NCBI GenBank assembly: GCA_008632985.1
Contig: QPGO01000204.1
Coordinates: 62,001-126,000, forward strand
Length of the DNA: 64,000 bases
Source: Psammoneis japonica
Taxonomy: Eukaryota
Reading direction: 5' to 3'
Under the pieces are notes generated by a model. That model did no database searches. It had not been told where the DNA came from and saw only the letters and a program-made list of their open reading frames with translations. Shown here piece after piece: positions 1 through 64,000 of the stretch; positions within the stretch are counted from its first letter, which is position 1; every line of letters begins with the position of its first letter. The position numbers were made by a program, and so were the translations under genes.

Positions 1-59
1 AATGTGACACCTGTCGAGAACTCCTCAAAACAGCACACCTGCTTCTGGCACCTCATCTC

Positions 60-1500
60 CATCTTCCACCTTTGCTGCAACACCCCCAATGCCCATTGGT
101 GCTGCAACTCTGGTGGCTTCTGGCAGTCCCTGCCACAGCCCAATGGCTTTTCCCAAGGATGCCCACACTCACTTCTCCCTTTGCTGCTGTCATCCACAGT
201 GTCATCCTCAAGAAACTCAATGCCAAACTCCACCAACAACTCCCTTCCTCTGACATCATGTCTGCTGCATTTCTCATTGATGACAACAGCATTTGGAAGC
301 TGCCACACAGAGCTGGTCCCAAAAAACAGAGTGTGCCTCAACCGCTCCAAGACCCACACACTCACCTCTGTCTCAGGGACCAACCCCTTGCCAAACTTGC
401 CCCCTGGCAAGTGCTGCCACAACAGGAATCTTTCGAAAATGACCCGTGACGTAAAACGCACAACACAATTGAGGATGTCTGCAGAATCCAAATGTTTTGC
501 ACTGAAACTGTTGTGTTTGCACAATTTGTGCAAAAATGGACTTGACTTTTGTCGGGTCAGGCGCATTTTTGCAAATGTGTTGAAGAAAAATGCGCCTGAT
601 CAGAAAAGAGTCACGTCTGTTTTCACTGAGGACAGACAGACAGACTTTTTGACAATTGTCTTGGCACTGTTCTGCACATTTCCAGATGAATGACTCTACA
701 GCGTGAAAGATTGCTGTTGCCTTTAATGAGCCCTTGCTTTTCTCAACCCCACCAACAACCCTGCCCTCCACCCTGAAATTGCCACTGGCCTCCGCTTCCT
801 TGGCCAACTCAACAGAAGCACTGACTTTGCCCACACTCACCTCCACCAAAAAGCTTCTGCTGTGTTCCATGCCAGCAATCTTGGCCAGCTCTCCTCCTGC
901 CTCCACCACCCCCTCAAACCAAAAGCTCGCTGTGCCACATGTGTGCTGCACATGTGCCACCTCCTCACTTCACAAAAGGACCAGCGCCTCTGCAACACCC
1001 TCCTGCAACACCTTGCAGCACAATCACAGCCCTTGCTGCCTCACACTCAGCTCTTCTTGCACACCTCCCTGCAGCCAATGGCATCATCAGATGTCACTCC
1101 ATCTCCGCCTCTGTCATCCCCTTTCTCATCTCCCAACTTGCCCACTCCCTGTGATGTGCCACACATGGACCCATGGCCACCAACAACAACTCCCTCAAAC
1201 TTCCTTCCTTCTGCATGTGCTCCCTTTGCACATGGGCCGCTTCTTGCCACCCCCTGCATCTTTGCCAAGTCTTCAAACTCTGTGGCTTTGCCACAATGCC
1301 AATGCTTGACCCTGCTCCACTCTCCCATGCTGCTCTTGTCAAGACTTGCCTGCTCCAAAACCTCCTCCACTCTTCATGCCACGTTGACTTTCTCAATGCA
1401 ATGCATCCACCATCCCAAGCCAAGCTGATGCTTGTGTCTGATCATCAGGCACTCACTGGCCTGTTGAACCACACTCTGGCTGCATCATCATGGATTCTGT
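60..1500 (+). mobile_element. Heavily degraded non-LTR retrotransposon (reverse transcriptase remnant), TpA-depleted
   Basis: Across frameshifts reads QPNGFSQGCPHS..FAAVIHSVILKKLN...MSAAF(L)IDD, matching the LINE RT motifs QG.PLSP.LF and YxDD. Downstream C..MDPW-type Cys/His remnant. Limits approximate. Confidence 0.45.
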
Positions 1501-2050
1501 GGCACCAAGTTGGCAATTTTGTTGTCCCCAAGAAGCCACTGCAGCTCAGTGGGATGTCTGATGGCTTGACAACAAGAATCCTGGGATGGTTGTGAACTCC
1601 TCCATGGATTCCTTTGTTACTTCAACCATCTTCTCCTTGGATTTTGATCGTTGTTTGGACGTTTCTTTTTGACATGCCGGTGTTATTTCGTCATTCCGAA
1701 GGCACTGCTTTCGTGCACCATGCGGATAAATGTCCATTTTTTGTGTTTTGTTTCACCATCGCTTCAACTGAGTGCTGTGTGCGGTCGACGTATAGACTCT
1801 ACGATGGAGAGTGTTGGTGTCTCTGGTCATTTTTGTCATTTGCAACAAACGATTGACAGACTGTGTACAACAAGCAGTGCTAGATAGCATGTCCTGAGTC
1901 CTGAATCTGTTTGACAATCGTGCTGTGTATGCTGTGTTTGAATCATCACATCTGCCTTTCATCTGCTGCAAATCGAGTGATGTGGCTGTTTTGTTGGTGG
2001 AAAAGCAGCAACTGCAGGCACAAGAACGTCACTGTGCAATTTTCACAGCA

Positions 2051-3021
2051 ATGAAAGAAACAAAAATAATGACATCATCGACAACGCCCTCCTTGTGTGG
2101 ATCCTTTTTATCCTCCAAACGTTCGCTCGTCACCTTTGCATGGACCATTGCTACGGCATTGTCATTGGCAGCCTTCATCATGGCTCTCGTCATGACATTG
2201 CAAATCAATTCACACTATCGCTATTTGGAGAGTCTGCATGCGCAAGAAAATAATAATAACAATCAAGACGATGAAGAAGAGGAACATGAATCCCAAGACG
2301 AACGAAACAATAATGACAATCCCTACGCATTATTGGCATCGGCGTCGAGTCGCAGCATGGCATTTGTCGGACTGTACACCATGATTCTAGCCATGGGCCT
2401 GTCTCTGTATGGATCGACGGCCATTGTCGGATTTACTTCGCTACGTGGGGATTACATTGCACCGTGCTTTTCCAGTGACAATTCAAGTATGCGTGTCGGG
2501 ATGTTTGGTGGAGCCATTGTTATTTTTGCAAATTTACTGCTACTCTGTGCCGTGATTTTTGGGGAATTTCGAGTGAGTAAGCACAAAAGAATGCTGTGTG
2601 CAAACTTTTGTTTTGCGCTGCTACTGTCTGTTGAAATGAGACGCGTCGCCACACAACGACTGCTGATATGCAGTAGCTCTTGCTGTTTTGTATGAATAGA
2701 CTTTCATTCGATTTTTAATCAGCATCTCGTTTTGTTTCTCTCTTTTGGTAGGTGGAAGACTTTGTGGATCAACGAGAAAAGGAAGAGATGGAACCCTATG
2801 CCGTGGAGCGAATATCCAGCGTATTGGCCATTACGTGCATGTTTTTGAGTGTGCTGTACACGATATTTGCCGTCTTGCTCTTTTTATGTTCTGAATCGGA
2901 GGAACCAAAAAAAGTTGATACGGACCACGAGTCGTCCCATCACACCAAGCCGTTGGTGACGGTGGGTCCTCGTGATCCAAACGTGTCTTCGGGATTTCTT
3001 ACAATGGAGACAGCGACGTAG
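2051..3021 (+). CDS. Two-exon membrane protein of unknown function (about 4 TM helices)
   Basis: ATG 2051. Phase-0 intron 2573-2751 (GTGAGT...TTTTGGTAG) joins ORFs 1925..2695 and 2752..3021 in frame. Hydrophobic segments, normal Tyr content. Confidence 0.75.
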
Positions 3022-3345
3022 TATAGTCCGCGTTTGGACCGAATCTAGAGTAGTAAAGCATCTACTCGGTGCATTATTATTTAGGGATCTTCTTTTGTAT
3101 TGGGCCTTTATCATTGTGTTGACGCTTTGCAAGCCCTTGCAAGCATGCAGTTATGCCATGTGTTGACTCCCTGTTTAAAGACACAGCCTTCCTGCAAAGA
3201 CTAGCTAGCTAGAGTATGCCTCTACTTCTACTCTATCTCTACTCTACTAGTAGAGCTAGAGCTACCGATAGCTACTCTAGACTAGCTACTAGAGAGTAGA
3301 GCGAGATAGAGAGGACCGACCGACCGATCGGCAAAATAGGAGACG

Positions 3346-3737
3346 ACTCCTAGTTGTAACTAGCAATTAAAAGCATTAGTGCATGCTAATTTATCATATC
3401 ACGCATTAAAAATCTATTCTTGTCATTGCAGGGATGATTTCTAGCGCTTGGAGCCTTTAAGAGAGAACTACTTGCGCTCACCAAGATCCGGATCAAACCC
3501 ACTTTAGGGCTTCAATGGCACTTGTTGTGTTTGTTGACTCTTGCTATTGCTCATGTTTAATGTCCTTCTATATGGTAGATGCTTCCTGGACTATTGTAAA
3601 GCCTTCAATCTATATTATGAACAATCTATGCATCCTTCCGTGTAAGCAAATAATGAAAATGGGTGTCCCACAGAAGGGTTCCGGCCTGCTGTCGTCATTT
3701 ACCTGTCACTGGTAGTATTTTCTACAGTCTGATCCCA
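3346..3737. repeat. Dispersed repeat, copy A (homologous to 63606-64000); may extend further
   Basis: Shared colinear blocks, e.g. ATGATTTCTAGCGCTTGGAGCCTT, GATGCTTCCTGGACTATTGTAAAG, AAGGGTTCCGGCC, TCGTCATTTACCTGTC. Confidence 0.85.
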
Positions 3738-5971
3738 ATCTAAAGAAGCATTGTCCGCATAAAAAAGCATCTTTCAAGTCAACATGAGCAATTTAAGCCG
3801 GGCTCCGAGTCGATTTGGTTGGAGCTTGTGTGTTCAAGGGATCCGAGGTCCAACTGCTTGCGGCTCCTCAGGAACTCGCATAAATTTTTGACACCTGACA
3901 ACTGTCCAGACACGTCTCATACAGTCATAGAGGGTGGAGTTTGAGCCATTGATTGAAACTTTTGGATGGATTAAAGTCGGCATTGAGTAGATTTGATTGT
4001 CGCAAACGATCTTGAAAGCAAGGATTGCCGCGTTTGCTTTTTTTTTTGACACGGAGAACACTGCCAAAGAAAGAGCTTGTGCTTTTCTATGTCATCTTTA
4101 TCGAATAAATCGTCCAAGTCATGGGTACCTGTATAATACATTCCACTTTAGACCTTCAAAACATTTGCTGTCGTGTCGGATGCAGAAGAAACAAAGAAAT
4201 TGAGTGAAAAGTTCAGATGACGATTAAAGGCATCAAATGAAGATGCCTTGCTTTAGTGCCCTTACCTTATGATCATAATGAGGTTTTAATATACTATCCA
4301 GGTGCTTCTTACACTTGGTGTTAAAGATTGCCGCCGCCGCAACCGATCCCATTGTCGACTTGAGTTGCGTCGCGTGTCTGCGTTTTGGATGAAAAAACAT
4401 TGATTTTATGGGTTATGAGCGTTTTGTCGAAAATCACAGCTATTGCCGCGCGGACGTGGTCGTGGAAAGGGGCTTCAATTAGATGGAACACGTTGTTTCT
4501 CGCTCAAAACGAATCATAAGTTTCCGTGTGTTCAAGGTGTGTTCCCACTACTTATTGAAGCCCACGGTGGTTCAGTTCTACGCGCGAGTGGCATTAGCTT
4601 CGACTTGTACGACTAAAATCTAAATAAATATTCAGGAGCTCGATCGACCTCGAACATTTTTAAAATTCCTTGCTTTGATGCATGAAACGCTATTTTACGG
4701 AATCCCATTATTTAATGACACAGAGCTGCAAGTTTCAAGATGTCATTCCAACATCAAAACTGCTGTGGCATTTGGAGCACCTTCCATGGCCCTTCACTTT
4801 ACTCGTTTGAGTGACCGTTCCTCAGACGTGCTCCAAATGGCAAGCTCATTTTGACTGCAAAGCAGCAGCTTTAAATTGGTGCTCCGTTTTCTGTGTAGAG
4901 TGTGCGCACTTTTCCGGCACATGACGTCACATTGAGAACACTCGATCACAAAAAACAATGCATTTTGTGAACTGGCTGGATTGACGATGATCGATGATTG
5001 TCTTGTGTGACACGCCTTTCCACTGGCTGTTTTTGAGCGCTTCTGATGTGGGCTGTCGCCCATGAGTTGCACTGCAGTCTTATGACCAAAGCACATTTTT
5101 GTGAAATTGCTTTACGCAGCTCTCAGCTCGCAAACCGAAAGCGTTCCGACATCTTTGCTGCTGACCTGCAGCACCATTGACCGTCATGCACTCTCCCCAC
5201 TTTGCCAAGAACAAACCGTTGTGTTGTCAATGGGTCAATCTAATTTTCTTTTTACATTGTGAAATCTTCTACATTTGCTTTAAACGTGAGCTGTCTGCAC
5301 AGCAGGAGACATCTAAATCCACGAGACAAACAAGTGGAGTCGGATGTTTTGATGTCAACTTTCGGTGGAGCACGGTTGCAGCGAGCACAGCTTGCTTGTT
5401 CGAGTCACCAACAGGAAAGACGGACAATCGGCGACACATTACATTCCTTTGGTGATGCTTGAAAATGGATTCGAGTGTTGACACAACATGGCGGTCGACG
5501 GCCACATGTTTGCTGATCTCCGATGCAAAGACAGGTTTCTCCAAAAGCTTCATGGCCTCAGGGAACCGTGCCCCGGACGATTGATGACACCCTGGCAAAT
5601 CAAGTGAAAGAGCAGCAAAATGCTGTTCAGTTGGGCGTTTGCAATAAAAATGCGAGGTTGACAACAACAAACAACTCGCGCCTGCTTTTGATTTTTGCCT
5701 TGTGTTGATGTCATCGATTGTCTGGATTGTGGCTGGAGAAAAGGCAATTTCAAAGGAACACATGAATTGAGAAGAGGGTGACGAGTGACATGCCATGGGT
5801 TTGATGACAATTGAAGTGCTTTCAGTGGCGCAACAGCTGCGAACCTCGACCGCCGCCATTGCCGAAGATTGCAGAAAATGGTTGGGCTGTCGGCATGATT
5901 TTTGTGTGCCAGACACACACGTACATTTTTTCTACGCTGGTACAAAAAAATTATTTCTACGAAGCTAATGC

Positions 5972-6230
5972 CGCTACATTTTTCAGTTCACTTGTCCGTC
6001 GATTTTTTTAATTAAGGGACCTCGATGAAAAATTGAAATATTTCAATCGTAGCCCGTGGTATCTTTTCTACGAAGGCGGATGCGCACGATGATGGTGCTG
6101 TCTCAGCTGATCTCGACCCATCCGGCCTTCGTAGAAAAGATACCACGGGCTACGATTGAAATATTTCAATTTTTCATCGAGGTCCCCTAATTAAAAAAAT
6201 CGACGGACAAGTGATCTGAAAAATGTAGCG
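5972..6230. mobile_element. Foldback/MITE-like inverted repeat: ~110-bp near-perfect arms, ~36-nt spacer
   Basis: 5972-6082 (CGCTACATTTTTCAGTTCACTTGTCCGTCG...CTACGAAGGCGGATG) is the reverse complement of 6119-6230 with only a few mismatches. No clear target-site duplication. Confidence 0.8.
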
Positions 6231-6392: not shown

Positions 6393-9148
6393 ATGTCTTT
6401 CAAACGCACCGCTAGTAGTAGTAACACAGGATCAGCCTCCAAGAAACGACTCAAAGCAAAAGTTGGAAAACGAGCCACTACCAAGAATAATGAGACGGAC
6501 ACGGATTTCAAGGCTGTTTCGGTACAAGTTTCACATCAACGAATTTCTGTAGAACAATCCTTGCAAGAATTGCTACCCAAAGCAAGTCATCCCTCGGCTG
6601 CTGTACGCAAATCATGTCTCCAGACCATGTTGTTGCAACAGAATTTGTTAAAAGAAAAATCCGTTTCATCGTTGTGGATACCCGTCGTGACCAAGTGTGC
6701 CAGTGTCGATGAGGACGAGAGTGTGCGACGGGTGGGATTTCAAATTTTGCAACAAGAGTGTTTCGAGATATCGTCACACCATTTATCCATTGTTCTGGCC
6801 TATGTGGCATCCGCCATGGTTCATCTCAATGAGGATATTCGATTTCACGGATGCAAACTATTGACGCTCTTGTGTAGCAACAACAAGCATGTTTTGCGAG
6901 AACAAGAGCGCGTCTTTTTACCGCTCTTTCCGAGACTGTTACGGGATGCCTCGAGTGTGGTCAAGAGCAATTACAACAACAACAAGAGGAATCAATATGG
7001 TGAAAAATCTAAAAAGAAAAAGAGCACATTGGAAGATCGGTTATCGATTGTGTTGGAGGCGCTCGTGGCGTTTCTAAGAGCATCGTTTCCAAAACAAAAA
7101 GCTTCTGCCGACGTGAGAGAGTCATTTCCAATCGAATTCCGTACCGCTTCGTCCAACGGCGTATTTATGGCTTCTTCACGTGCAGTTTCTACGAAAGGTA
7201 CACCAATCCAGAGCATGAGTGGCTTTTGCAACATGTTGCAACAACAACAAGAAACTTTGGGGAAAAAGAAGAATCGAGACTTGCCTTTTGTAACCGACTG
7301 CGTGTCGATCCTGGAACGACTCTGTGACGTGTTGATTGAGTTACAACAACAATCGAACAATTCTTCTCCATCACAGCTGTTGCTTGTACTGGAATCGGTT
7401 CGCATTCTGTGGAAACAAATCGTATCCTTGGAAAAGTTGTCTGGACGTTTGCTCAAGCTCTTGTTGGAACTCTATCCCATTCACGAGGGTAACTCTGCAA
7501 ACGTGGCAATATTACAAGTCAATGCATTGTTGGTTTGTCTCTTGGTGGAACTTGGGCGTGACCAAAAGAATAGCAACAAGGCTTGGATGCATCCGGTTGT
7601 TTCGTTTTGTACTAGTACTACACAGAATTCGAGTAGTTTCGAAGCGATTGAAACCTTGTTGGGAGATTGGAACCCAAACGAAGACGACTGCAATACTACG
7701 AGTATAGTAGTGCCATGTGTCACAAGGTATTTCAATCCGTGTGTGATTTGTTCTTTTCGCATGACCAAGAAACAACGGTGGATCCATTGTCTGCCCGCAA
7801 AGCCGTAAAACTCGTGCTGGGTATAATCACTCGATACAACGATTCGAATGACAATGTGAAGAATGAAAAGTCTCGGAAACGATTCATTGCCTTGACGCGA
7901 AATGTCATTTCAGGATTAGCAAAGTATATCACAGCATGGGACACATCCTATTTGGACGATTCGAATGTGGTATGGAAGTTCTTGTTGGATGCGATACGAA
8001 AGCGCGATTTGAGCGAAAAGAAAAAGAGTGCAATCATGACGAAGGATTTGATGCAAATCTTGTCGACGGATGTTTCTCGTTGTCTTTTGAAAGGTACAAA
8101 AAAGAAGCAACCAATGTTATTTGTACGGTATCCTGAGCGTATTCAGCGTATAGTGGTGGCATTCCTCGGGACGCTAATTCAGTCTCACGAGGGCAACGCA
8201 GACACTATTGTACGGGGACTGGCCAAGTCGTGTCAACCACAAGCTACTATTACGCTGAGTCCTATGATTTGCGATTATGTGTTTGACGTGATGCACACGG
8301 TCCGACGATGCGTGTCTATGCAAACGTATTTGGAATTCGTCATGGACAGTGTGACTATAAACCGAGGGAAAACGAATGACAATCCAGACGAATGTATCTC
8401 GTGCCAAGCAATCATGAAACACGACGAGTCATTCAAGCGTGCATGCCGCGCCCTTGTGGAATGTGGGAGTGCATCCAAGGTTTTGATGGCTCTTGATGAA
8501 GTCTTGTTGAGCTGGATTACTAGCAGTACGGAATCCTCTAGTCTCGACTCGATTCGAACGAAGAGAGCGGCAATCCTAGTGTTTGCGAGCTTTTCTCTAC
8601 ACCTCAACAGAGACGACTCGTCTGTGTTTCAAGTGCTGCCACATCTCTATGATCCCGCAGCAATTGGCGTTTGTGACTTGCTTTCGAATTTCATGTTTGC
8701 TAATGAAAATGCCAGCAATAGCGATAGCCAGTTTGACGCTCTGATGCGGCCCATTGTGGTGAGAAAATTACAGTATCGTTAATTCGCATGCATGTTATTG
8801 TTTGCCGCGTTTGCCATTCTCATTTACATTCCCTTGTTCTTTTAGGTCTTGATCAACTGCGAGCCGCGTTTACTATCGACCATCTTTCAAGAAGCCGCCA
8901 ATAGAATTGTTGGCTATGAGAAATTTACGGATGAAGCAGAGGCATTGCCGTCCGATACGCTTCTCTTGCGAGCATTGATTGAACTGATTCCGTCACCAAG
9001 GATTGTCAGTGCGGTTCGACAAGAGTCGGAGCAACTGAAAAGACATTGTCAAACGATTGAGTCCCACATTGCAAACAGTGGATCTCGGAACGATCACCTC
9101 GGCGGGAACCTCCGGACAAGACTCGATGCGATTGTTGGATTTTCCTAG
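6393..9148 (+). CDS. IPI1: IPI1/TEX10-like pre-rRNA processing (Rix1 complex) protein; one apparent frameshift near 7690-7712, intron 8759-8845
   Basis: N-terminus KKRLKAKVGKR..NETDTDFKAVSVQVSHQ...LQELL....HPSAAVRKSCL resembles the Ipi1/TEX10 N-terminal signature; HEAT-like helical body. GTGAGA...TTTTAG intron joins ORF 7667..8782 to 8846..9148 in frame. Confidence 0.75.
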
Positions 9149-9605
9149 AGTACACGTACTGTAATGTCACTCAACGAATGCAAAGTTTTGCGTCTTTGAC
9201 CGGTGACTGCTTCTACTGTTCAAGCAAGCAATATGTAGATGGAGCACCAAATCGTAATGATTTGTGTGTCTACTACCATACTCCTCCTTCGCACTCTGTT
9301 GGCGCTGGAGGTGCAGGACAGTTTCAATTTTTAGCTAGGAATGCGACAGTAGACTACTACTACTACTACTCCGTTCGATGCATTAACCCATACATATGTT
9401 AGCCTTACGCAAGCAACTGTGATACAGACAAAGTATTCCTACCACAACCATGCAACTTCAATCGTCCCGTGTTGCTGCAATGCTATTTGCGTAACAACAA
9501 AGAATGAACTGCAACTGCAGCATGATTGGCAAAAAGGATGAAATAAAAATCACAGATCTAATTGTTGTCTACCGTGAATGCATATGCGGATCCAGAATTA
9601 TAGCC

Positions 9606-10343: not shown

Positions 10344-11605
10344 CTACTCCTTTGGCGTGTCGACCTTGTCATGGTCGGTCTTCGCCTCGTCGGTCTTTGC
10401 CTTGTTGTTGCTTGCGGCGTTGGCGGCATCGGATTTCAAGTGAGCATCATCAAGCCTTGCACGCTTGCTGGAAGGCTGCTCGTCATCGTCGTCGTCATCC
10501 TCTTCAATAGAGGACAAGGCCAAGGCCTGAATCTTCCTCAAGGCCCGTTTGCGGTCTTTAGGGGAAGTGTTGGGAGCACAGGCCGTCTCCGTGAGCTGCC
10601 GAATGTACTCCTTCTCGGCGGAGAGAGCCGTTTCCGTGGTGCGGTGGGTGAGCTCTGACATTGCGTTCGGCGATGAGGCAGGGAGGGATTCCGACGAGAC
10701 ACGCACTTGGGCTTGGGCAGAGAGGGATTTAGGGGGCTTGTATCCCATGCCGTCCTTTACCATGTCCTTGAACACAGCCGACTTTTCGTGTTTGTTCCGC
10801 CAGATGCGCATGGTGGAATTTGGACAATGAGGGCTCCTCTTGTAGCCAGCGTTCATCATCAACTGAACCTTTGCGGATATCTTGTCAGGGTGTTCCATCC
10901 AGTTGTCCTCGTCTGCAAGACCTCCGTACGCAAGAGCTTTCTCGGGAAGCGCTTCAGACAACAAGTCTACGTCGTCGTTGACGATCATTTTGGCGGTCAA
11001 GTCCTTGCGGTCAAGCATCAGCATTTCGTAGTTGACACGTTTGATGTCTGCGTTGGCGATTTTTGCTTCTTCCTCTGCTTTTTTCATCACGAGTTTCAGC
11101 TCCCGGAATTCCTGCGAGATCTTCCTAACCTTCGTGGAGGCCTCATCATACTCTTCAAAAGCCCCTTTGAGTCTGCCTTCGTACCTCCCCAAGGCCTCTT
11201 TCGCTTCGCTTCTCTCCTTGGGAAATTGCCTCTGCCTCTTGTCCTTAAGCACGCGTTTTGGCTCACTTGCCAACTCGCGAAAGTCCTCGCTGTGGAAGTC
11301 GAAGTGCTCGACATCGTCCAGCTGAGGTGCTGGGCGCTGAAGGAACACTGCGCAGGCGTGTGCAAAGCATGGAATGTGATGAGAATTGGGCCAGTGCGCA
11401 GTCCGTGACAGACACAAAACTCACACGGACAAGAACTGTGCAACTCACCTGAAGGTAAAGAAAAGCATTCTTCCAAGAAAGACTTCACCGTGCCGCCAAG
11501 CGACTTCGACTCGTCACGGGCGACGGGTTGAGTGGGGCCAGGGATGACCAGTTGCATGTCCTCGATTTCGGGGTCACCGTTGGGGTCACCGTTGTTTTCG
11601 CTCAT
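10344..11605 (-). CDS. Two-exon orphan protein with coiled-coil and acidic C-terminal tail
   Basis: ATG 11605 (MSENNGDP). Phase-1 intron 11448-11348 (GTGAGT...CGCAG) joins to long ORF 10344..11417. GC-rich codons, heptad-like segment. Confidence 0.65.
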
Positions 11606-14050: not shown

Positions 14051-14068
14051 GCAATAACAATCATAGTT

Positions 14069-52979: not shown

Positions 52980-53234
52980 TGTCAATGTTCTGGGTTTCAA
53001 TCGGAACTCGTGCGCGATCTCATGCGCGTCTCTGCTTCAAGACACACACCAAGACTGGCTCTTGTGTGCTGCAGTTTTTCATTCGATTTTCTCCTCACAA
53101 TTTCAAGATGACAACAGTGCAACAACACCTTTTTTTTGGTCTCATCACCTTGATCTGCCTCTGCCCAGCCAGATCAACCTCTCTTCGACCTCTTCACGTC
53201 GAAATCCCAATTGCTCCGTTCCTGAGTCATTGCA
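52980..53234 (+). repeat. 5' LTR (contains no TpA)
   Basis: Aligns end to end with 60139-60399. Confidence 0.95.
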
Positions 53235-53249
53235 GGTTATGAGCCCAAG
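53235..53249 (+). promoter_or_regulatory. Primer-binding site of the internal/half tRNA-iMet type
   Basis: GGTTATGAGCCCAAG directly after the LTR, resembling the Drosophila copia PBS GGTTATGGGCCCAG. Confidence 0.75.
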
Positions 53250-53726
53250 TGTCATGCTTGCGACTCTGCCGCATTGCGCCATCGTTTCCTCAAGAAGCGA
53301 ATTCTCACCCCAGCACATCTAGGTGCATTTCCATGCACCACGTCGACACATTTCAGACGCTCATGACAGAGACGCCATCTCTGGCAATGGACGAACTCAT
53401 CACTCAACCAAACAACCTTCAGCTTCAGAGTGCTGAACTCCTGCGACAAATCGAGGAAGAACGAGAATGGCCAGCCCACAATCCTCCTCCGACTGCCCCT
53501 TGAGAAGACACTTCAAGGGGAGAACTCACCACCCAAGACTTTCACGCAGGAGACCGCGTGTGCATCACGAACGAAATCCGTGGTGTCCGGTTCAGACAAG
53601 CAAACGTCCAAGACCGCCAGGCCACAGTCACTCAAATCACTGCCAAACACGTCTTCGTACGCACGGACAACGGCAGCACAACAAATTGTCATCCAAAGAA
53701 CCTTGTTTTCCTTGCCCAATCTCAAG

Positions 53727-55274
53727 ATGACTACGAACGCTGCTCCAGTCTCTGCTCCCGACTCTGCCAAGACAGGGACGACTCCTCCTCCTTCGGTTGC
53801 GCAGACCAAGCTTGGCCAGGCCACTCCAACGACGACCGTCACGATTAACGGCCGCACTGTTCAAGTTCGGAAACAGCCAGAAAACTCACTCTCAGATGAC
53901 CTCAGCCCTGCACACGAAGAAGCAGAGGGAGACGCTTGCTCCAGACAAGCTCAACGACATCTTCTCTCATGCCACAGCACCCAAGCAGCAAACCAAATTT
54001 GACCTTCTTGACATCAACATCGCCGATCCTGACAAGTCAGAGGACACCTGCGACTTCTCCATGTCGATCCAGACCATGCGCGCAAATCACATCAAGTGCA
54101 ACATGGACGACATTTTCCAGGTCGTCGATCATGTCACCCTCAAGACTCGCAACTTGCACACCAACTGTTCGACTGTCACCGTTGCTGAAGTCACTGCGAG
54201 CAACAAGTGGCACTCCACCATGCTCGACAACCCGATGGCAAGTGGGCTTCTCAGAATCTGAACCTCACCTGTGATTGCGCCATCAAGCACGCTTCTCCAC
54301 CTTTGACCAAGAAAGTCAACGAGACTTGCCTGCGTCATTCTAACGAAGAGCGCGGTGGACCGCTCCACTTCATCATCATGATGAAACTCCTTCAGAGCGA
54401 CTCTGAAGAAGCCGCACTTTATCTCGTCAAGCTGCTCTCATTGATCAAAATCACCGATTTTGATGGCAAAGACATCAGCAAGGTTGTCTCGCTCATCCGT
54501 GGTGGTGTTTCTCGCCTCGAGAATCTCAAGGACCCCACCGGCAAGACTTGCATCCCAACCGATTTTCTTGCTCAGCTGACAAAGGTCTTCCAGACTTCCA
54601 GCATGGCCAAATTCAACGGACTCTTTGATCATCTCTCCAAAAAGTCCAAACTCAAGAAGTTTGTTTCTGTGGCTGCTTCAACTTCTGCTTCTGTGCCTGT
54701 CGAATCGATTGCGAACCTCCTTGACATTGCCGAGCGCAAATGTCATGCTCTGTGCGCACGCGACAAGTGGTCCGGCGTGACCACCAAGGCCAATGCCTCC
54801 TCCTTTGTCGCGAGCATCCTCAGCAAGTGCTTTGGTTGCGGCACCGAAGGATGCTCTGTGGACAAGTGTCCCAAGCCTTGCGATGAAGCTCGCATCAAGG
54901 CCAACAAGAAGCTTTGTTTCGACACCAAGCACAACAAGTCCAAAGCCGCCTCACCGGGCAAGCCTGCCAAACAGCCCCCAGCGAAGTGGAAGCCTCCGAC
55001 CGACGAGGAACGCAAGAACAAGAATCGCCGTGACATCGACGGCAAGGATTGCTTTTGCCATTTCAAGACCAAACGTTGGAAGCCTGTCAGCGCCAACGTC
55101 GCTGCGCCGCCTCCTGCATCAGCTCCTCCAGCTCTTCCGACACCTCCTGCAGCTCCGACACCGGGTGCCGATGCTCGTGTCGCCGCCACTGAGGCAGCAA
55201 AGGAGCTCGCCATCGCTGACGCGACTCAGGCCATGCAAGACACCTTCCGTGGTCTCCTGGGCGCCTTCACTTGA
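53727..55274 (+). pseudogene. gag: gag (frameshifted) with Cys knuckle CFGCGTEGCSVDKC
   Basis: ORFs 53430..54002, 53797..54261 and 54207..55274 chain together; GGPLHFIIMM..LQ and ITDFDG.D.SK motifs; position in element. Confidence 0.8.
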
Positions 55275-56249
55275 CTTCCCGGGCGCGCCACTGCCCTGCT
55301 CCCCACTTGGCACACAGCCCACCCTCAACCACCCGATCCTGGAAGGGACACCCAGGTTTGGCTCCATTGTTTGTGTCTGTGGTTTGTTGTTTCGTTTCTT
55401 CAAGAGGGTGATTTCGGACATTGCGTGCCATCTGACTGTTTTCAGCTGTTGTCTCCAGCAGTCATGGGATTGTCTTTCACATGCTGTTCTTTGCAAAGAA
55501 ACCCACAATGCTGCACTTCTCCAAGCAACCTGCACACGCTGACTTCATCTTCGAGCCAACCCCACAACCTGCTTCACCAACTCCAAATCGCCGACTGCCT
55601 CGAGCGAAGCAGCATCCACTGCATTTGTGTCATGCGGCGTCCTGTCCTGCATCCAACAAGGACTCCTCCAGTCTGTCTCTGGAAACCCTGGACTTGGACG
55701 TTCAAGCGCAGGACTCCAGCTCCTCCTCGAAATCTGGATCCCGAACCAGACAATCCCTCAAGACGTCTCACATTGCGCCATCGCCGACACTCAAGACGCT
55801 ACAAGCGCCCAAGAGGGCACTGCTCCAATCGCTCCTGTCGGAACCCTCAATGTGAAAACCAGATCTTCATGCAAGGATTCAAACAACTGGTCCTCTGAAC
55901 CAGATGACAATCCTGGCAACAAAGAATTCGCCCGCATTCGTCATCGATTGCTCCATCAATCATGGATCATGCATGATCTACAATTTGGCATCAATCTGGA
56001 CTCTTTTGTCAAGTCCATTGACCCACTGCGACAGCTCTGTTGCTGGAGAATCTTGACTGCTCCTGAAGTCCTCGAATCCATCAACAATCGCGATCCGTTT
56101 TGCTGTCTCACCACCACCTTGAGCAACAACGAGCGCCAAATTGTCACCTCACCTCAGTTTGGTGGAATTGCCATGTTTTCAAAACAGGCAAAACACATTC
56201 AGACCGCTGGAACACCAAGGAAGAAAGAACATTTTCAAGCTTGCCTTTC

Positions 56250-59200
56250 TTCCACAAAAACGGACACTCCAATCATCCCAGATGCCGGCGCTTCATCCTC
56301 TTTAACCCCGCACATCTCACCAACTTCATTGGACCTCTTGAACCAGCTTCGCATGCCGAGATCAAGGGCCTTGCATCCAGTGCCCGCGTTGTTGGAAAAG
56401 GCACCGTCAAATGGGACATTGTCGACTGCTGGAACGTCACTCGCACCGTTCGGACAACTGCCTGTCACGTCCCTGACTGCTCAATCAGACTCTTCAGTCC
56501 TCAAACCCATTTCCAAGAGAATGAGAACAATGGATGCTGCCACATCTGTGGCAACAAGTCCATCCTCGAGCTGGCAAATGGCAACAAACTTGAGTTCCCC
56601 TGCAATGCTGGGAATGACTTGCCTCTCATGCTCACTGCTCATCCTTTCAAAGGCGGCATTGACTCCTGTCATGTTGCCCCACTTTTGGATTCTAACTGTT
56701 CATTTTTGTCAGTTGCTGCTCAGACAAATCAGAACATGACACCAGCTCAAAAGGAGCTCCTTCTCCTTCACCAGAAATTCGGACATGCTGGATTCCAGTG
56801 GATCCAATGCCTTTGCAAGATTCCCTGGAGTGAACAGCACAGCCAAGTGCTCAAGCCGCGAAACCCAACAACCAATTCATGCGATGCACCTCTCTGTGCA
56901 GCTTGCCAACTGGCAAAGCAACAACGACGCAATCCCGACCATCGCAGCACATCCAAACCTCAAGAAATGACCCTTCGTTCCAAGGATCTTTGCCCCGGAC
57001 AAGGTGTCTCCATTGACCAGTGCATCAGCCATCTCCCTGGCTGCTTGCCCAAGTCAAAAGGAAAGGAAGCCCCAAGAACAAGTGCAATGGCGGCACACTT
57101 TTTGTCGACCATGCATCGGGCTACGTCCATGTCAACCATCAAGTTGGACTCACTGCTGGCGAGATGCTTCATGCCAAGCAACGCTTTGAACAGCACTGCA
57201 ACACCTTTGGAGTCCAGGTGCAGCACTGCCATGCTGACAACGCATCCTTCGGTTCCAAGGCATTCCAAAGTCACATCAATGACAACGGGCAGAAACTCAC
57301 CTTTTCTGGCGTTGGAGCTCATCATCAAAATGGGGTTTCCGAGCGTGCACACAAACCATGACCTCATGGGGTCGAGCTCTGTTGCTCACGCCATCCTCAT
57401 GTGGCCTGATCAAGCCAATCTCGAACTGTGGCCTTTCGCCATGGAACACGCCGCTTGCATTTGGAATCATTTGCCCCGTCAAGATTCCCGACTTGCTCCT
57501 GTCGAGATTTTCTCCGGCCAACGCTTGTGTGGGGTTGTCCCGCGTACGTTCTCGACCCGAAACTACAAGACAACAAAAAGATCCCAAAGTGGAACGCACG
57601 ATCTTGTCGTGGACAGCATCTGGGCGTCTCCTCAGATCACTCCATTGGCATCGGACGGATCCTGAATCCAAACACCGGTTTCACAAGTCCACAGCATCAC
57701 GTGGTCCATGATGACCATTTTGCTTCAGTCCCAAATGCTGATTCCGGCGGCATCTTTCACAATGCTCCGTTTGACGCTGGATCCTTCTGACAATCCAAGA
57801 CACGGCCAACCATGCCTCCACGATCATTGGTTGACTGCGCGCGAACGTGCGCATCGCAACTGCCACCGCCAGTGACAAAAAGCCAACAAATCCGCTGCCA
57901 AGAATGCCCAACCCGCCACCCAGGACATTTCTGACTCCTCTTCTGTCTCTGCTCCAGAGGAGTGACAACACCAAAACATCAAACTGACGATGATGCAGTG
58001 GACGTGGGAGCATTCACTCCAGAGGGAGCCAAACCTCCAGAGGAAGAGACAGACTCTCTGCCTCCACCGGAACCACCGGATGACAACGAGTTGTCTCTTG
58101 TGGATCATTTTGATCTGCCAGACGACGATGATGCCGTCGCAAGCAACAACACGCCACAGCCATCACCTCCACTGCAAGATGTGCAACCACGACGACCACT
58201 CAGAGTGGCCGCACAAGTGGAAACCGTCACGTTTTATCAAATCGATGATGGCTCACATGTCCTTCCCAAACACTGAGTCTCCACAAGCTCACAAGAACCC
58301 GAAACGGACGGTCAAGGCTGAATCCTCTGAACCAGCAATTCTTGATGTCCTTGCAATGGGAAAAGATCACTCACACTCTCCAATCTCGTGACCTCAGTGC
58401 AATGTTCAACATTCTGCGTGCCAATGCCGACATTGACCACAACACAGTTGAAGAATTTCACCCTTTGGCCTTCGCAGCAAAGGCAAACTCGGGGCTGACA
58501 ACCCTGCTTGGGACCAAGCAATGAACGGACCAGACCGTGCAGCCCATTTGAAGGCTTGCGACGTCAAACTGGATGCTTTGGCAAAAGGCAAAGACGCTTG
58601 GGATGTTGTGGATTGTGAAGATTGGATGAACGTCCTGCCATCTGCTTGGGCGTTCAAATGCAAACGATTTCCAGACAGTCGCATCAAGAAACACAAGGCT
58701 CGATTTTGTGTTCATGGCAACAAGCACTCGAAGGCATCGACCACTTTGACACCTTTGCTCCAGTGGCAAATTGGACAACTGTGCACCTCATGCTCATTCT
58801 GTCTCAAATCTTGCAACTCTCTACAAAACAGGTCGACTGTGTTACGGCTTTCGTACATGCTCCGATCGACAAGGACCCCGACTTCGACAAGTTGTCGCCA
58901 GAGGAACAAGCTCGTTCCGGCGTCTACGTTGAAATGCCTCGTGGCTTTGCGGAACCTGGGAAAGTCCCAAAGCTCAAGAAATCCGTCTGTGGACTCAAAC
59001 AAGCACCGCGAAACTTCTTTTTGCACCTCAAGTCCAAACTAGAAGGTGCCGGATTCACCGCTCAAGACGACGTCGATCCGTGCCTCTTCATCTCGGACAA
59101 AGTCATCTGTCCAGTCTACGTCGATGACACCCTCTTCTTCTCTCCCAAGCAAGAGCACATCGATGAAGTCATTGAAAAGATTCGCCTTTCTGGACTCGCC

Positions 59201-60111
59201 ATCGAAGAAGAAGACTCAGTCGCGGGATTTCTCGGCGTGCACGTCAAGCGCGACACCGATTCAGGTGCTGTCAAGCTCACCCAGAGCGGCCTGGCCCGCC
59301 GTGTCGTGGAAGCCCTGAACATGCCTCATCTCCCAAAGAAATGTGCACCAGCAACTGCCACTCCACTCATTCAAGATGCCGACGGCGACCCTCCTGCAGG
59401 CGCCTGTGACCATGCAAGCGTCATTGGCATGTTGCAGCATCTCGCCGGCCACTCTCGGCCGGACATCTCGTGTGCAGTGAGTTCCGCTGCCCGCTTTGTT
59501 CACTCACCTGAACGCTCGCACGAAATTGCTTTAGAGCGGATTGGACAATGTCTCAAAGGGACCCTCGACGAAGGTCTCATTTTGCGCCCAACCGGAAATC
59601 TCGATGTCGACGCACACGTCGATTCTGACTTCGCCGGTCTGTGGCCACACGAAGACAAGCAAGACCCTGCGTGTGTCAAGAGCCGCTCATTTGTGTCTCC
59701 AACTGTCCCATCATCTGGACAAGTAAACTCGCTCCCGAAATCGCACTCTTGACGATGGAAGCCAAGCACAACGCTCTGTCCTTCTGTGTGAAGAGCGTTC
59801 TTCCGTTTCAACGCGCCGTGTGCTGCATCTCTGAGTGCACCGGCATTGGCACCTGCATGTCTGCCACCTTCAAGACTGCTGTCTGGGAGGACAATGCCGG
59901 AGCTCTGACTCTCGCGAACATGGAACCTGGTCGGATCACTCCGCGATCCAAGCACTGTGCTGTCAAGTGCCGCTGGCTCCGGTCCCATCTCAAGCCCAAC
60001 GATGTCACTGTCCAGAAGATCTCTACCGATCTGCAAAGGGCAGATTGCCTAACCAAAGGGCTTACAAGGGACGCATTCGAGTCCATTCGCAAACTACTCT
60101 GTGGATGGTAA
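56250..60111 (+). pseudogene. pol: pol (protease, GAG-pre-integrase/integrase, RT, RNase H), multiple frameshifts, Tyr to Cys/His
   Basis: DAGAS; H.KFGH...C.AC; LWPFAMEHA..IWN; SAWAFKCKR; CGLKQAPR; YVDD; HVDSDFAG; WEDNAGA; QRADCLTKGL. Confidence 0.93.
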
Positions 60112-60129
60112 TTGATCTCTCACTCGTTC

Positions 60130-60138
60130 GAGAGGGAG
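60130..60138 (+). promoter_or_regulatory. Polypurine tract
   Basis: GAGAGGGAG abutting the 3' LTR. Confidence 0.8.
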
Positions 60139-60399
60139 TGTCAACATTCCGGGTTTCAATCCGAACTCGTGCGCGATCTCGCGCGTATCTCTACTTCAAG
60201 ATACACATCAAGACTATCTCTTACGTACTACAGTTTTTCATTCGATTTTCTCCTCACAATTCACAATTTCAAGATAATAACAGTGTAACAACACCTTTTT
60301 TCAGTCTTATCACCTTGATCTGCCTCTACCTAGCCAGATCAACCTCTCTTCGACCTCTTCACGTCGAAATCCCAATTGCTCCGTTCCTGAGTTATCGCA
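60139..60399 (+). repeat. 3' LTR (retains 14 TpA)
   Basis: Aligns end to end with 52980-53234. Confidence 0.95.
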
Positions 60400-60404
60400 C
60401 TCAA

Positions 60405-62000
60405 CATGCTTTCATCGGTTGCTGCTGCAGACGAATTCTGGCGACGCTTCCAAAGGTCCTGCATCGAATTTGCGTCTCCTCTACCAGCTGCCACAGTCAA
60501 TCACGGGTATGTTTTGCAGTTCCAATGGAGAATTCGCTGCTGCTTGTCAAGTAGTAACGCCGTCACCAACATTGGTACCGTCGGCGGCAACCAGCAGTAG
60601 CCTGTATGGCTCTGCTTGTCTTGTCATGCGGGTTTATGCCATTGCAACGAGTTTGTTCATGGTCTTTACTACAATGGTTTGAACCATTGCTAACGAGCGG
60701 AGCAGGATTGGGGAAAAACTAATGGTCAATTTCTCAAAGTATTGAAAGGGGACGTGAAGAGGGATCGAGACGCAGACACATGAACAGGCGGTTTCAGAGC
60801 AGTTAAATTTGTTTGTTCGATTGCAATGGCGGCCAAAAATACACGAGGCCCGAAAGGAACGTTCAAAGACGAAATCGAGGGGAAAAAGGGTGCCGTAGTA
60901 GCCTCGATGATGCACGAATGTCTACCACAAACAGCTGGACTCGAAGGCAGCATGGTTAAGTATCATATATGGAGAAAATTGTGTCATGCTTCTCTACTGG
61001 CACCGGTAATTTGGATAATGCTCAATCCGAGTAAGAAAATGGCGATGAATTCGACGAGAGCTTGCCAAGAATATTCCCCTCTCCAAGTTTGAATGGAAGT
61101 TACGTTATGTGGCGAAGAAGGGAACTGCTTTCGGTCGACTCTTTTGCTTTACTTTAAGATACCGTACGACACCAGTGACGAGCATTGTCTGAATCGAATG
61201 GTGATGATGTAATGTACGGGTGTTTCTCGCACGTCCCGTGGCGAGAATAATCCATACTTAAACTGTAAGCTTGGTCTCAAATATGGGAATCTCAGTTTGG
61301 GTATGAGAAAGTTTGCAAAATGCAGGCCTCAGCGAGAAAAGGGAAAAGGCTGGGGGCTCGTTGCCGTCAACGGTGCAGAATGGGGTGAGCTCATTCAGGA
61401 GTACACTGGTTAAGTTATCGACGAAGAAAGAACGAAGAAACGCCTTGAAGCATGGGCTAGAGACCGTCCAAACGACGCCATTTTCTACGTGATGTATCTT
61501 GACACCGGCTGGTACATTGATGCGAGCAATGAGGCCAACAGAGTTGATTCGTTAATCATTCGTTTGATCCAACCTGCAAACTGGTCCGAGTCAATGTTGG
61601 AGGGTACTTGCACGTTGCCATCAAATCCTGTATGAACATTGTTCCTGGAGAATTTCTGATTTACGACTACCAGTTTGATACAAGGGATATTTACAAGTTT
61701 CTCTGTAGATGCGGTGCTGCTAAACGTCAAGGCACCTTGGTGGGAAAGGAGTTCCAAGATTGTGCCGAGCAGAAAACAAAGGGACAGGAATGAGGAGGTG
61801 CGAGGGTACGCTTGTACCGCGACAAGACATTTCTTGAGGACCTTAAGAGACACGCAGCACACAGACGTTTGCATGTTTCAGATCTTGTGCCGTGTACTAC
61901 CAAGACGAGACCGTTGCGAGTGGACCGCAAGATTGCGATCGAGAGTTTGCAGTGAAAAGCAGGCTGTTCTTGTGTCGTAATGTCGTTCTGGGGGCTGACT
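60405..62000 (+). pseudogene. Degenerate AWS-SET-postSET histone methyltransferase (H3K36-type) gene; probably continues upstream of the copia insertion (~52400-52979)
   Basis: KGWGLVAV....GELIQEYTG*VID, FYVMYLDTGWYIDA, INHS.DP.C, PGEFLIYDYQF and FLCRCGA (post-SET); HCLNRM (AWS-like); Cys-rich upstream remnants; stops and frameshifts. Confidence 0.8.
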
Positions 62001-62254
62001 TCTCGGCAAGGTGCTTATCACTGGAGAAAGCTTGCAAAAAGTCTTGATATACATGAAACAATGAAGCGATAGGCATCTTTTCTCTCTTCGAAAGGGCGTC
62101 TTAGTGGAGGTTCTTGTGAACACTCCCTGTACCGAGTGTTTTGTACATTCAGAAAAGTTGAATGTGCTCTGTATCCTTATCTTCTACATACTGGTGGCGC
62201 GATTGGAGGTGACGCTGCTTCTTGGGATGGTACAGTAGTGATAGATACCTGGAG

Positions 62255-62462
62255 TGGCGGCGGCGGTTGCGGCGTACCATAACGAAGAAGAAGTTGGGAT
62301 GGACCTGCTGCTGCTAACCTTGGACCTTCTGCTGCTAACCTTGGACCTACGAAAGTAATATAGTAATTTGTGGTGATGCTTGGCGGCGGCGGCGGAGCAT
62401 AACGAAGAAGAGGAATTTGGGATGGACCTGCTGCTGCTAACTTTGGATCTACGAAAGTAATT
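62255..62462. repeat. Two-copy tandem duplication (~120 bp) with internal GGACCT..TGCTGCTAACC subrepeats
   Basis: CATAACGAAGAAGA...TTGGGATGGACCTGCTGCTGCTAAC...CTACGAAAGTAAT occurs twice. Confidence 0.8.
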
Positions 62463-62904
62463 GGTGGTGATGCTTATGGGCCACGAAGCATTGCAGAGCA
62501 TAATAGACCTGGACCAAGAATACACGGTGACGACACGTACGGCCCTGCTTCTCTAGCATTCTAGGAACCCCTGTGGATACCCGAGATGGTCTGGACACGT
62601 ATTGAGCATGGGCCTGGACCTTACGCACGCCGAAGTGTTGGGAACACGTACGGACCCGGGCGTGGAATGAGTGCAGATCGATTTCGCCTCCTAGACTAAG
62701 TGAGGTGATTCGTACGGACCATCACAGCCACACGCACCTCGTGTCCTACCACACACTCATACGGTTTGGTGTAAGGTATGCTCTCTAGAACAAAAATCCC
62801 GAGCTTACTGCCGCTGCTCGCTCTTGCGATCGCAGCTTCTCTTGCATTATGTGGTACTCGTACAGAAGGGCGAGTAGCGATACCACAGAATTCAAAATCA
62901 CCTT

Positions 62905-63120
62905 GCTACCTGTCTCTATTTTAGCAAATTACAAAAATAGTATAAGTACAAGTGCTACAAGTGCCGCACATTTTGACTTTCCCGAATATTGCATGTCGTA
63001 TTTCCTGAATAATGCATGTCGTATTTTCCGAATACTACATCTTGCATTCCCAAAGGTTTTTCGTTGCATTCCCCGAACATTGCACGGTGCATTCCCCTTT
63101 CCCAAACACATCACATGGTC
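62905..63120. repeat. Dispersed repeat, copy 3 (see 42861-43050)
   Basis: Direct alignment. Confidence 0.85.
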
Positions 63121-63605
63121 ATTGTTGCTCATGATGCCCGAGCCTCCCTGGCTGCCACCCATGACATGGACAACATTGTTGAGCACCTGCAGGTAAAGTG
63201 CATCCGTCGCCTTGGTCCTGTCGCAACCACCTGATCGACTCAGAATGCCAAGAAATTATAGAGGAGGGGTTGTTCAAGGAATTAGAGAGCCCGTCTATGT
63301 AACAAAGGAAGCTGCTATGGGCAATACAAGGAAACAAAAGAGCAATTCAAGGACGTGAGGACCCGCAAGCATGTGGACTCAGACTTCTGTGAATCTTGCA
63401 CCTGTAGCCAAATCGATGCAAAGCACAGTTGCACCCCTCGTTTGTAACTCAAAGGGGCTTTATCGAGTCCCTCATACCATCATAATCGAAATGTAACTAT
63501 GACCAGTAGAGAACAGATGTTGATGCGAGTGTTTTCTCGGCATGCTGGGGTTTGCCAGTTCAATCTGTCGTGGCATGTTGCCTCTCCTCGAGGTCGTGGC
63601 ATGTA

Positions 63606-64000
63606 GCTCCTAGTCGCAATTAACCATTAACAGCACTAGACTATATTACTTTGTCAAATTACTCATTGATAAACCCATTCTCACCATTGCAGCAATGATT
63701 TCTAGCGCTTGGAGCCTTGCAGAGAGAACCACCTGCACACACCAAGTTCCGGATCAATCCTGCTTTCGGGCCTCAATGTCACTAATTGTGTTTGTTGACT
63801 TTTGACATTGCTTATATTCAATGCACTCCTATGTGTTAGATGCTTCCTGGACTATTGTAAAGTATTCAATCTATATTGATAACGAACTACGCATCTTTCC
63901 GTGCATGCAAAACGATGGAAACAGGTGTCCGACAAAAGGGTTCCGGCCAGCTATCGTCATTTACCTGTCGCTGGCAGCATTTTCTACAGTTTGATCCCGA
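63606..64000. repeat. Dispersed repeat, copy B (see 3346-3737), runs off window end
   Basis: Direct alignment. Confidence 0.85.

Follow-up and report, generated by a model that had tools for sequence, protein, structure and literature searches.

A two-state TpA mosaic in a 64-kb stretch of a diatom genome suggests a targeted TpA mutator acting after integration

The closest described counterpart of the pattern reported here comes from the chlorarachniophyte alga Bigelowiella natans, and we compare that system with a compositional mosaic in the diatom Psammoneis japonica, where about half of a 64,000-bp stretch (GenBank assembly GCA_008632985.1, contig QPGO01000204.1, positions 62,001 to 126,000; hereafter the window) is nearly free of the dinucleotide TpA and a copia retrotransposon is split by the edge of one such TpA-poor block. 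When B. natans was propagated as mutation-accumulation lines, two integrated viral regions took up 231 of the 302 point mutations in the nucleus; almost every one of those was A>G or T>C, each lay at TpA, and the rate was about 1000 times that of the genome, in some lines only (Mettrop et al., bioRxiv 10.64898/2026.01.13.699255). According to the accessible text of this preprint, the targets are integrated giant-virus and virophage DNA and are far from saturated (rho TpA 0.45, TpA 3.3% of dinucleotides); in that genome, TpA-poor, CpA+TpG-rich windows are clustered, reverse transcriptase (RT) and DDE domains are enriched in TpA-poor genes, and an ADAT2-like deaminase is put forward as the candidate enzyme, as a proposal. 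The same text makes no mention of a diatom, stramenopile, heterochromatin, flanking or trinucleotide. Full-text searching of the literature for the TpA signature yielded this preprint only and nothing on diatoms, and a SPLASH paper that mentions both diatoms and hypermutation proved unrelated; as far as this searching shows, the signature had been described from B. natans alone.

Other systems leave related footprints. In Neurospora and other ascomycetes, repeat-induced point mutation (RIP) changes C to T at CpA and thereby raises TpA; it is triggered by duplication of a few hundred base pairs or more and depends on the cytosine methyltransferase homologues RID/DIM-2. In methylated transposons, CpG decays by deamination of 5-methylcytosine. 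The animal APOBEC3 and ADAR enzymes, as far as the accessible sources describe them, act on RNA or pre-integration cDNA, and on one strand.

TpA, CpA, TpG and CpG observed/expected (O/E) ratios were computed in sliding 500-bp windows across the 64,000 bp. Segmentation used a two-state Poisson hidden Markov model (HMM) on 100-bp bins, with edges taken as maximum-likelihood change points. Six blocks were in the low state, which we call erased, and together they cover 32,521 of 64,000 bp (50.8% of the window):

1-1616: block 1, continuing past the window start; 3 TA, TpA O/E 0.03, CpG O/E 0.18
4715-5920: block 2, erasure less complete; 12 TA, TpA O/E 0.14, CpG O/E 0.76
14095-19050: block 3; 13 TA, TpA O/E 0.04
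22940-24980: block 4; 9 TA, TpA O/E 0.07
33730-40750: block 5, the most decayed; TpA O/E 0.07, CpG O/E 0.23 and about 0 between 35000 and 38500
44340-60020: block 6, 15.7 kb; 88 TA, TpA O/E 0.09

TpA O/E per block was 0.03-0.14 in the low blocks and 0.58-0.69 in the normal blocks. By HMM state, the low and normal values were 0.08 and 0.62 for TpA, 1.54/1.62 and 1.15/1.19 for CpA/TpG, and 0.56 and 1.00 for CpG. TA counts dropped to 0-3 per 500-bp window over long runs, where CpA/TpG O/E rose to 1.5-2.1, and 156 TA survived in the erased blocks compared with 1348 in normal DNA. Across 128 non-overlapping 500-bp windows, a two-component mixture was strongly favoured over a single component (Bayesian information criterion -13.1 versus 58.1). 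Three or fewer TA were found in 45 of these 128 windows, against a mean of 0.15 and a maximum of 2 in 200 first-order Markov simulations, and the longest TA-free run (1667 bp, 17217-18884, in block 3) compares with a simulated maximum of 470. An earlier note, made from the sequence alone, had described such a mosaic over about half of the window; the O/E windows and the HMM confirmed that it is real and two-state, and the distribution of TpA O/E was bimodal rather than unimodal.

The 11 change points (1616, 4715, 5920, 14095, 19050, 22940, 24980, 33730, 40750, 44340 and 60020) had support intervals of 30-395 bp, that of the 60020 edge being 59980-60050, and the edge positions of the earlier note differed from them by 0-160 bp. 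At the edge near 44339, TA occurred every 10-20 bp and then gave way to a 460-bp TA-free gap. Two further low calls of the HMM were not counted as blocks: 10401-11600, a GC-rich ORF in which CpA/TpG is ordinary and tyrosine makes up 2.0%, and 25301-25600, whose length was insufficient for judgement.

The assembly was checked against Logan contigs of one sample's sequencing run (X1), perhaps the same sample as that of the assembly. X1 contigs matched erased DNA with 0 differences at 14546-15581, 15721-16294, 16614-19331 and 22675-24470, and they crossed the edges at 19050 and 22940. Word depth in X1 was 29-36 over erased DNA and 27.8 over single-copy normal DNA. Depth thus shows no step and the contigs no trace of a polishing boundary, which makes an artefact of either kind unlikely.

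The edge at 60020 falls within a retrotransposon, whose two long terminal repeats (LTRs) lie on opposite sides of it:

52980-60399, + strand: copia retrotransposon with gag-pre-integrase, SH3-like and RVT_2 domains (Pfam)
52980-53234, + strand: 5' LTR, 255 bp, 0 TA, erased state
60139-60399, + strand: 3' LTR, 261 bp, 14 TA, normal state

A perfect 5-bp target-site duplication (CTCAA at 52975-52979 and 60400-60404) marks the element as a single insertion, which started out with two identical LTRs. Erasure of copia begins with its first base and ends at about 60020, the remainder being intact; the earlier note had placed this edge at the start of the 3' LTR, but it lies 119 bp upstream of that point. 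Because the edge is inside the element, identical LTR sequences have been treated differently, and the finding of one erased and one intact LTR in one insertion means that the change occurred in place, after insertion. Of the 14 TA in the 3' LTR, seven read TG, six CA and one CG in the 5' LTR. A>G changes were found at 15 of 28 target bases at TpA but at only 3 of 115 A's in other contexts, and C>T changes at 5 of 30 CpG positions versus 2 of 78 elsewhere; with TA- and CpG-type differences set aside, the background divergence was 2.76% (7/254). At ApA, 0 of 42 positions had changed in the LTR pair, while a second normal/erased pair had changes at 5 of 52 ApA versus 10 of 22 TpA. By hand estimate, TpA loss in the LTR pair (>93%) exceeded CpG loss several-fold and was at least two orders of magnitude faster per site than background; these rate ratios are lower bounds because TpA is saturated. 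Three further normal/erased pairs showed the same type of pattern as the LTRs.

The change is TA to CA or TG, on both strands, with TA ancestral. In a three-copy repeat, about six places (alignment read by eye) had TA in both intact copies and CA or TG in the erased copy, and TA is taken as ancestral because both intact copies agree on it. The coding consequences point in the same direction: tyrosine content was 0-0.7% in seven ORFs of erased blocks and 1.1-3.5% in nine ORFs of normal blocks, and one rewritten gene copy could be compared with its homologues:

14069-15373 (ORF 14072-15373), - strand: rewritten copy of an FG-GAP repeat gene, whose 3'-terminal 26 bp lie beyond the block edge

The FG-GAP ORF contains 0.23% tyrosine and 2.8% cysteine, compared with 3.5% and 0.3% in 29 homologues, and it has retained none of six conserved tyrosines, which are now two histidines, three phenylalanines and one isoleucine. 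Tyrosine loss, taken with the LTR pair and the three-copy repeat, fixes the polarity of the change. With regard to strand, CA-versus-TG asymmetry per block ranged from -0.08 to +0.07 and was no greater in erased DNA than in normal genes, also at the 500-bp scale. The order of CA and TG fates formed 6 runs in 13 informative LTR sites (about 7.5 expected) and 4 runs in 10 sites of the second pair (hand count), and these runs gave no sign of processive action on one strand.

Relative to the normal state, erased DNA was short of 1073 TA and 926 CG and had an excess of 1742 CA+TG; TA and CG conversions together explain most of the compositional shift. ApA O/E was higher in erased than in normal blocks. 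All 25 windows with CpG O/E below 0.5 were among the 65 of 128 windows that were TpA-low (TpA O/E <0.3), and TpA loss was complete in places where CpG O/E was still 0.9-1.1, such as 14251-15250 and 59001-60000. CpG decay is therefore the slower process, nested in the same domains. The flanks of the 156 surviving TA differed from those of the 1348 normal TA (chi-square 79, 9 degrees of freedom, p = 2.5e-13): ATAC/GTAT (0 versus 22.6 expected) and ATAT (1 versus 9.7) were depleted among survivors, and TTAA (21 versus 7.2) and CTAA/TTAG (31 versus about 12.7, the latter scaled by hand) were enriched. In a rough additive hand model, T after TA (equivalent to A before it) was the most susceptible flank and A after TA the least. 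This bias may be a lead towards a motif wider than the dinucleotide, and some of the survivors may be new mutations.

Two duplications in normal DNA allowed us to ask what had happened to other repeated sequences over a similar time:

19089-22046, - strand: duplication A, copy 1, intact, between two erased blocks; 125 TA
30113-33053, - strand: duplication A, copy 2, intact; 121 TA
7892-9416 (+ strand) and 12615-14054: duplication B, intact; 72 versus 66 TA

The copies of duplication A are 11 kb apart and align over 2934 bases, and those of duplication B are 4.7 kb apart and align over 1440 bases. Background divergence, with TA- and CpG-type differences again set aside, was 1.81% in each, and judged by this divergence both duplications appear to be about the same age as copia. 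Because the LTR lost 14 of 14 TA over a similar time while the duplications kept theirs, the process must be targeted, and because duplications of the same age keep their TA, duplication is not the trigger. We are highly confident that a real, targeted TpA mutator has acted on this DNA. Both duplications consist of diatom-specific genes without a Pfam domain, and their summed contig depth (90-170 versus about 30) suggests that further copies exist in the genome. A 767-aa ORF of an intact duplication had a best atlas score of 0.79, which was uninformative, and its matches in sequence searches were unnamed diatom-type hypothetical proteins.

What the blocks contain bears on how they were chosen, and Pfam scans covered 104 ORFs of the window. 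The following units lie within erased DNA, some with intact counterparts elsewhere:

23480-23944, + strand: Copine/VWA fragment (Pfam), inside block 4
34900-36650: satellite of about 180 bp, in block 5, without TA and CpG
39715-40034: erased gene-family fragment, with an intact copy at 22076-22394
44397-46429, + strand: at the left edge of block 6, two long ORFs for a lineage-specific repeat protein; TpA O/E 0.03-0.22, CpG intact
49390-50463: erased copy of a dispersed repeat, with intact copies at 42861-43254 and 61172-63111

Block 6 runs unbroken through at least four unrelated units, namely lineage-specific repeat-protein ORFs, decayed DNA, the dispersed repeat and copia. CpG O/E in these units ranged from 0.12 to 1.16 (0.12-0.4 in the decayed part), yet no 250- or 500-bp window inside 44340-60020 had a normal TA density. 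The dispersed repeat was erased or intact according to its location, being erased at 49.4-50.5 kb and intact at 42.9-43.3 and 61.2-63.1 kb. Block 3 contains the FG-GAP pseudogene and a zf-BED scrap (Pfam). In the satellite of block 5, CA and TG were both present among monomers in seven alignment columns, compared with 0-1 columns for other double-change pairs, and these mixed columns indicate that the array was mutated where it stands. The gene-family fragment at 39715-40034 had lost 10 of 11 TA (seven to CA, three to TG), and 12 of its 32 CpG cytosines were altered. No viral hallmark was found in the Pfam scans of the 104 ORFs, which detected copia and host-type domains, and none of the eight ORFs of block 1 matched a Pfam family. 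The claim of the earlier note that the blocks span unrelated sequences was therefore borne out for copia and host gene copies, whereas its LINE (long interspersed nuclear element) found no confirmation in the eight ORFs of 1-1616 and its DNA transposon has as its sole basis a zf-BED match just below the Pfam cut-off.

The block edges are related to the intact genes around them. Six of the 11 edges (1616, 5920, 22940, 33730, 40750 and 44340) are situated 241-690 bp upstream of the start codon of an intact ORF whose direction leads away from the block, 14095 and 19050 lie at the 3' ends of intact genes, 60020 is inside copia and two are unclear. From these positions, the erased state occupies the DNA that separates intact gene units, and those units include their promoters. 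Distances of 41 and 39 bp separate edges 14095 and 19050 from the duplication ends 14054 and 19089, and the start of block 6 coincides with an ORF start near 44350, with untouched AT-rich DNA upstream. The window contains no tRNA genes, which could be barriers, and no rRNA, and at the edges of blocks 2 and 4, the terminal repeats and target-site duplications looked for gave short, chance-level matches only. At ≥90% likeness, some stretches of erased DNA occur as a single copy in X1, for example 17001-19000 with a depth of 29.3.

We propose that a DNA-level mutator, acting after integration, would turn T:A to C:G at 5'-TpA-3' on both strands, approaching saturation in silent, gene-free parts and sparing the intact gene units in between. 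Taken as a whole, a post-integration TpA mutator that saturates silent, gene-free DNA and spares intact gene units is the account that we favour with moderate confidence. Its targeting may depend on silent chromatin state rather than on sequence homology, with active promoters and gene ends possibly acting as barriers; on the anatomy of the blocks, we give about even chances to targeting by domain or chromatin state. The chemistry could be enzymatic deamination of adenine preceded by T (A to inosine, read as G), as proposed for B. natans, an assignment that we make tentatively. A silent-chromatin template is plausible in diatoms because H3K27me3 and H3K9me2/3 in Phaeodactylum mark mainly copia-type transposons, with H3K27me3 forming blanket domains of at least 2 kb (PMC4504042, in its accessible part). 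More speculatively, a diatom mutator might read silent chromatin and so make TpA O/E a base-pair-resolution fossil of silent domains and their barriers, its probable agent being a DNA adenine deaminase with a U33-A34-like preference as in tRNA deaminases. The equal signature active in a rhizarian alga raises the possibility, equally speculative, of an old genome defence of the SAR lineage (stramenopiles, alveolates and Rhizaria), which would be mechanistically opposite to fungal RIP.

The likeness to B. natans, as far as the accessible text of the preprint describes that system, extends to A:T>G:C changes confined to TpA, kb-scale regions, a large rate contrast and a footprint that is depleted in TpA and enriched in CpA+TpG. 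The two cases differ in that the diatom footprint is near-saturated (O/E 0.03-0.14), whereas that of the rhizarian was measured de novo; the targets here are copia, a satellite, a dispersed repeat and host-gene copies rather than viral inserts; and edges have been mapped here, at gene-unit borders and once inside an element. Nested CpG decay, spared duplications of the same age and the flank bias of surviving TA are seen here and unreported in the accessible preprint text.

Like RIP, the process in P. japonica causes transitions at a specific dinucleotide, disables mobile elements and gene copies where they stand, and marks them with a sharp-edged compositional footprint. However, RIP creates TpA from CpA and generates stop codons, while here TpA is destroyed, TAA and TAG are removed, and duplications of 2.9 kb and 1.4 kb are unmutated. 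CpG-to-TpG/CpA decay like that of methylated transposons is present in part of the erased DNA, with CpG O/E down to 0, but such decay cannot remove TpA, and in the LTR pair 14 of 14 TA were lost while 5 of 30 CpG cytosines changed. The resemblance to APOBEC3 and ADAR, within the accessible descriptions, is that of deaminase-type transition hypermutation of mobile or foreign nucleic acid; here, in contrast, the change is post-integration, on both strands, position-dependent and found in non-retroelement DNA too.

Several points weigh against the proposed mutator of silent domains. TpA is palindromic, so that adenine deamination and thymine modification are indistinguishable from sequence. Gene conversion by an unerased copy elsewhere could account for the intact 3' end of copia. 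Edges 14095 and 19050 are near duplication ends and 44340 is at an ORF start, and unit-by-unit targeting, or later insertion of intact DNA beside old erased DNA, would also give sharp edges. In addition, the 3.9-kb intact gene island at 19051-22939 has survived between erased blocks for about as long as the erasure of copia took, and because this island persists, the state does not simply spread over a region. Finally, run X1 does not depend on the assembly or its polishing, but it may share the sequencing chemistry.

Some of these points would be expected if single elements were targeted, through RIP-like homology or small RNAs, and the large blocks were clusters of targeted units. Besides copia, a satellite and a dispersed repeat, the erased blocks hold remnants or copies of multi-copy gene families, the depth of contigs summed over the FG-GAP copy is 237-415 versus about 30 for single-copy DNA, edges fall at the unit junctions 14054/14095 and 19050/19089 and at the ORF start near 44350, and an intact gene island is kept between two erased blocks. 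We nevertheless consider per-element targeting rather unlikely, as the 3-kb and 1.5-kb duplications (about 1.8% background divergence) are untouched although roughly as old as the erased LTR, the LTRs of one insertion met opposite fates from an identical start, one old dispersed repeat is erased or intact according to place, and parts of the erased DNA are single-copy. The regional targeting asserted in the earlier note is thus backed by the anatomy of the blocks, while the edges at unit junctions fit targeting unit by unit equally well. The heterochromatin state of which that note took TpA O/E to be a fossil map is a possible basis; the note named no mutational mechanism, and on our evidence the blocks result from a TA-to-CA/TG mutator and are more than a compositional state. 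A different chemistry with the same targeting is also unlikely, although none of the data argue against thymine oxidation, and T>C before A and A>G after T look identical at a palindromic site: the T of TpA might be modified, for instance by TET/JBP-type oxidation to 5-hydroxymethyl- or 5-formyl-uracil, or the changes might stem from error-prone repair synthesis. Thymine modification prefers TpA in some protists, and 5-formyluracil pairs with G. Polymerase eta, with its WA motif, makes A>G changes at both TpA and ApA, and such a signature is not seen here, as ApA was changed at 0 of 42 positions in the LTR pair and ApA O/E is raised in the erased blocks.

The remaining explanations are far less probable. 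Editing of retroelement RNA or cDNA before integration by an ADAR- or APOBEC-like enzyme would fit the presence of retroelements among the erased units and the ADAR-type preference for U before the edited A (noted in the Discussion of the B. natans preprint, in its accessible text), but it is extremely improbable given one erased and one intact LTR, an edge inside the element, equal effects on both strands and erasure of the upstream flank of copia, the satellite and host gene copies alike. Nor do we give much weight to a genome-wide TA-to-CA/TG bias with TA kept in functional DNA by purifying selection. It is true that the erased state exactly fills the space between intact gene units, and that TA<->CA/TG differences are somewhat frequent in the intact 3-kb pair (15 of 77 mismatches); yet the non-coding 3' LTR and its flank have normal TA density, the edges are resolved to tens of base pairs, unlike graded selection, and the intact duplicates retain 125 and 121 TA, silent and non-coding sites included, which excludes such a bias with selection for practical purposes. 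It is just as improbable that a modified base at TpA in silent DNA was systematically miscalled or that the blocks were rewritten by polishing. Strand-specific miscalls merged in a consensus could also give CA and TG at about 1:1, and X1 may come from the assembly's own sample. On the other side, X1 contigs of up to 2717 nt match erased DNA exactly at even depth and cross two edges, which noisy long reads are in our judgement unable to yield; the copia LTR, the FG-GAP copy and the satellite carry ordinary extra divergence besides erasure; and an equal signature arose de novo in the Illumina-sequenced lines of B. natans, as the accessible text of that preprint reports.

Erasure changes what the DNA appears to encode. 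TAA and TAG occur at 3.2 per kb per strand in erased DNA and 19.7 in normal DNA (about six times rarer), and ORFs of at least 110 codons are twice as dense (3.17 versus 1.49 per kb). The long, intact-looking ORFs that overlap on both strands of the blocks are therefore chance products of the removal of TAA and TAG; false genes are to be expected when genes are predicted in erased blocks, and homology searches would miss tyrosine-less transposon proteins. As tyrosine codons become histidine or cysteine codons, missense changes, and not stops as in RIP, do the damage to proteins. TpA erasure would also remove TA-containing signals, for instance TATA-like promoter elements. If our reading is true, the diatoms would be a second major algal lineage with TpA-specific DNA hypermutation against mobile DNA, which would widen a one-species preprint observation to a principle of genome defence, and the mosaic would be a sequence-only read-out of where silencing acted and where it stopped. 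The findings also hint at a naturally occurring enzyme that would convert A:T to G:C at one defined dinucleotide of double-stranded chromosomal DNA; to our knowledge, none with this activity has been demonstrated.

The copia lineage was followed outside the window by a metagenome scan with its RT, in which two relatives, with 46% and 56% protein identity, were found among 113 candidate stretches. Their contigs (L001 and L002) are decayed, with in-frame stops, and have TpA O/E of 0.65 and 0.66 and CpG O/E of 0.51-0.61. Because their TpA is ordinary, TpA erasure is not general to the copia lineage. At positions where these relatives have tyrosine, the element in the window reads C, C, H, P and Y (few sites).

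The ORF pair at the left edge of block 6 is TpA-poor yet has preserved CpG, and it may still be a functional gene within reach of the mutator, or else a pseudogene of very recent origin. Its ARM-like ORF (45044-46429) has weak relatives (best E 1e-22), both conserved tyrosine columns are still tyrosine, and its eight surviving TA are distributed over all codon phases; the family is rich in histidine and cysteine by itself.

Several smaller features lie in or beside the blocks:

5972-6230: hairpin-like element; its two 106-nt arms are 98% complementary, with a 47-nt spacer
24980-25300: 320-bp TA-rich stretch with 25 TA and many GTAC/ACGT palindromes
40388-40638: 125-bp tandem duplication (two copies, 90% alike), just within the right edge of block 5

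The TA-rich stretch stands between block 4 and a 300-bp stretch with one TA and may be a promoter or a later insertion. In the satellite at 34900-36650, two monomer types alternate in a higher-order repeat, and ApT O/E is just 0.2-0.5. A TLDc-domain gene at 41185-42669, in normal DNA, has 122 relatives with a best identity of 46%, the few with an organism name being diatoms, among them Fragilaria crotonensis, Epithemia clementina and others whose names start with Asteri-, Atthe-, Tric- and Chaet-. The hairpin-like element has normal TA density and is located 52 bp outside an erased-block edge; it may be a young insertion resembling a miniature inverted-repeat transposable element that escaped the mutator.

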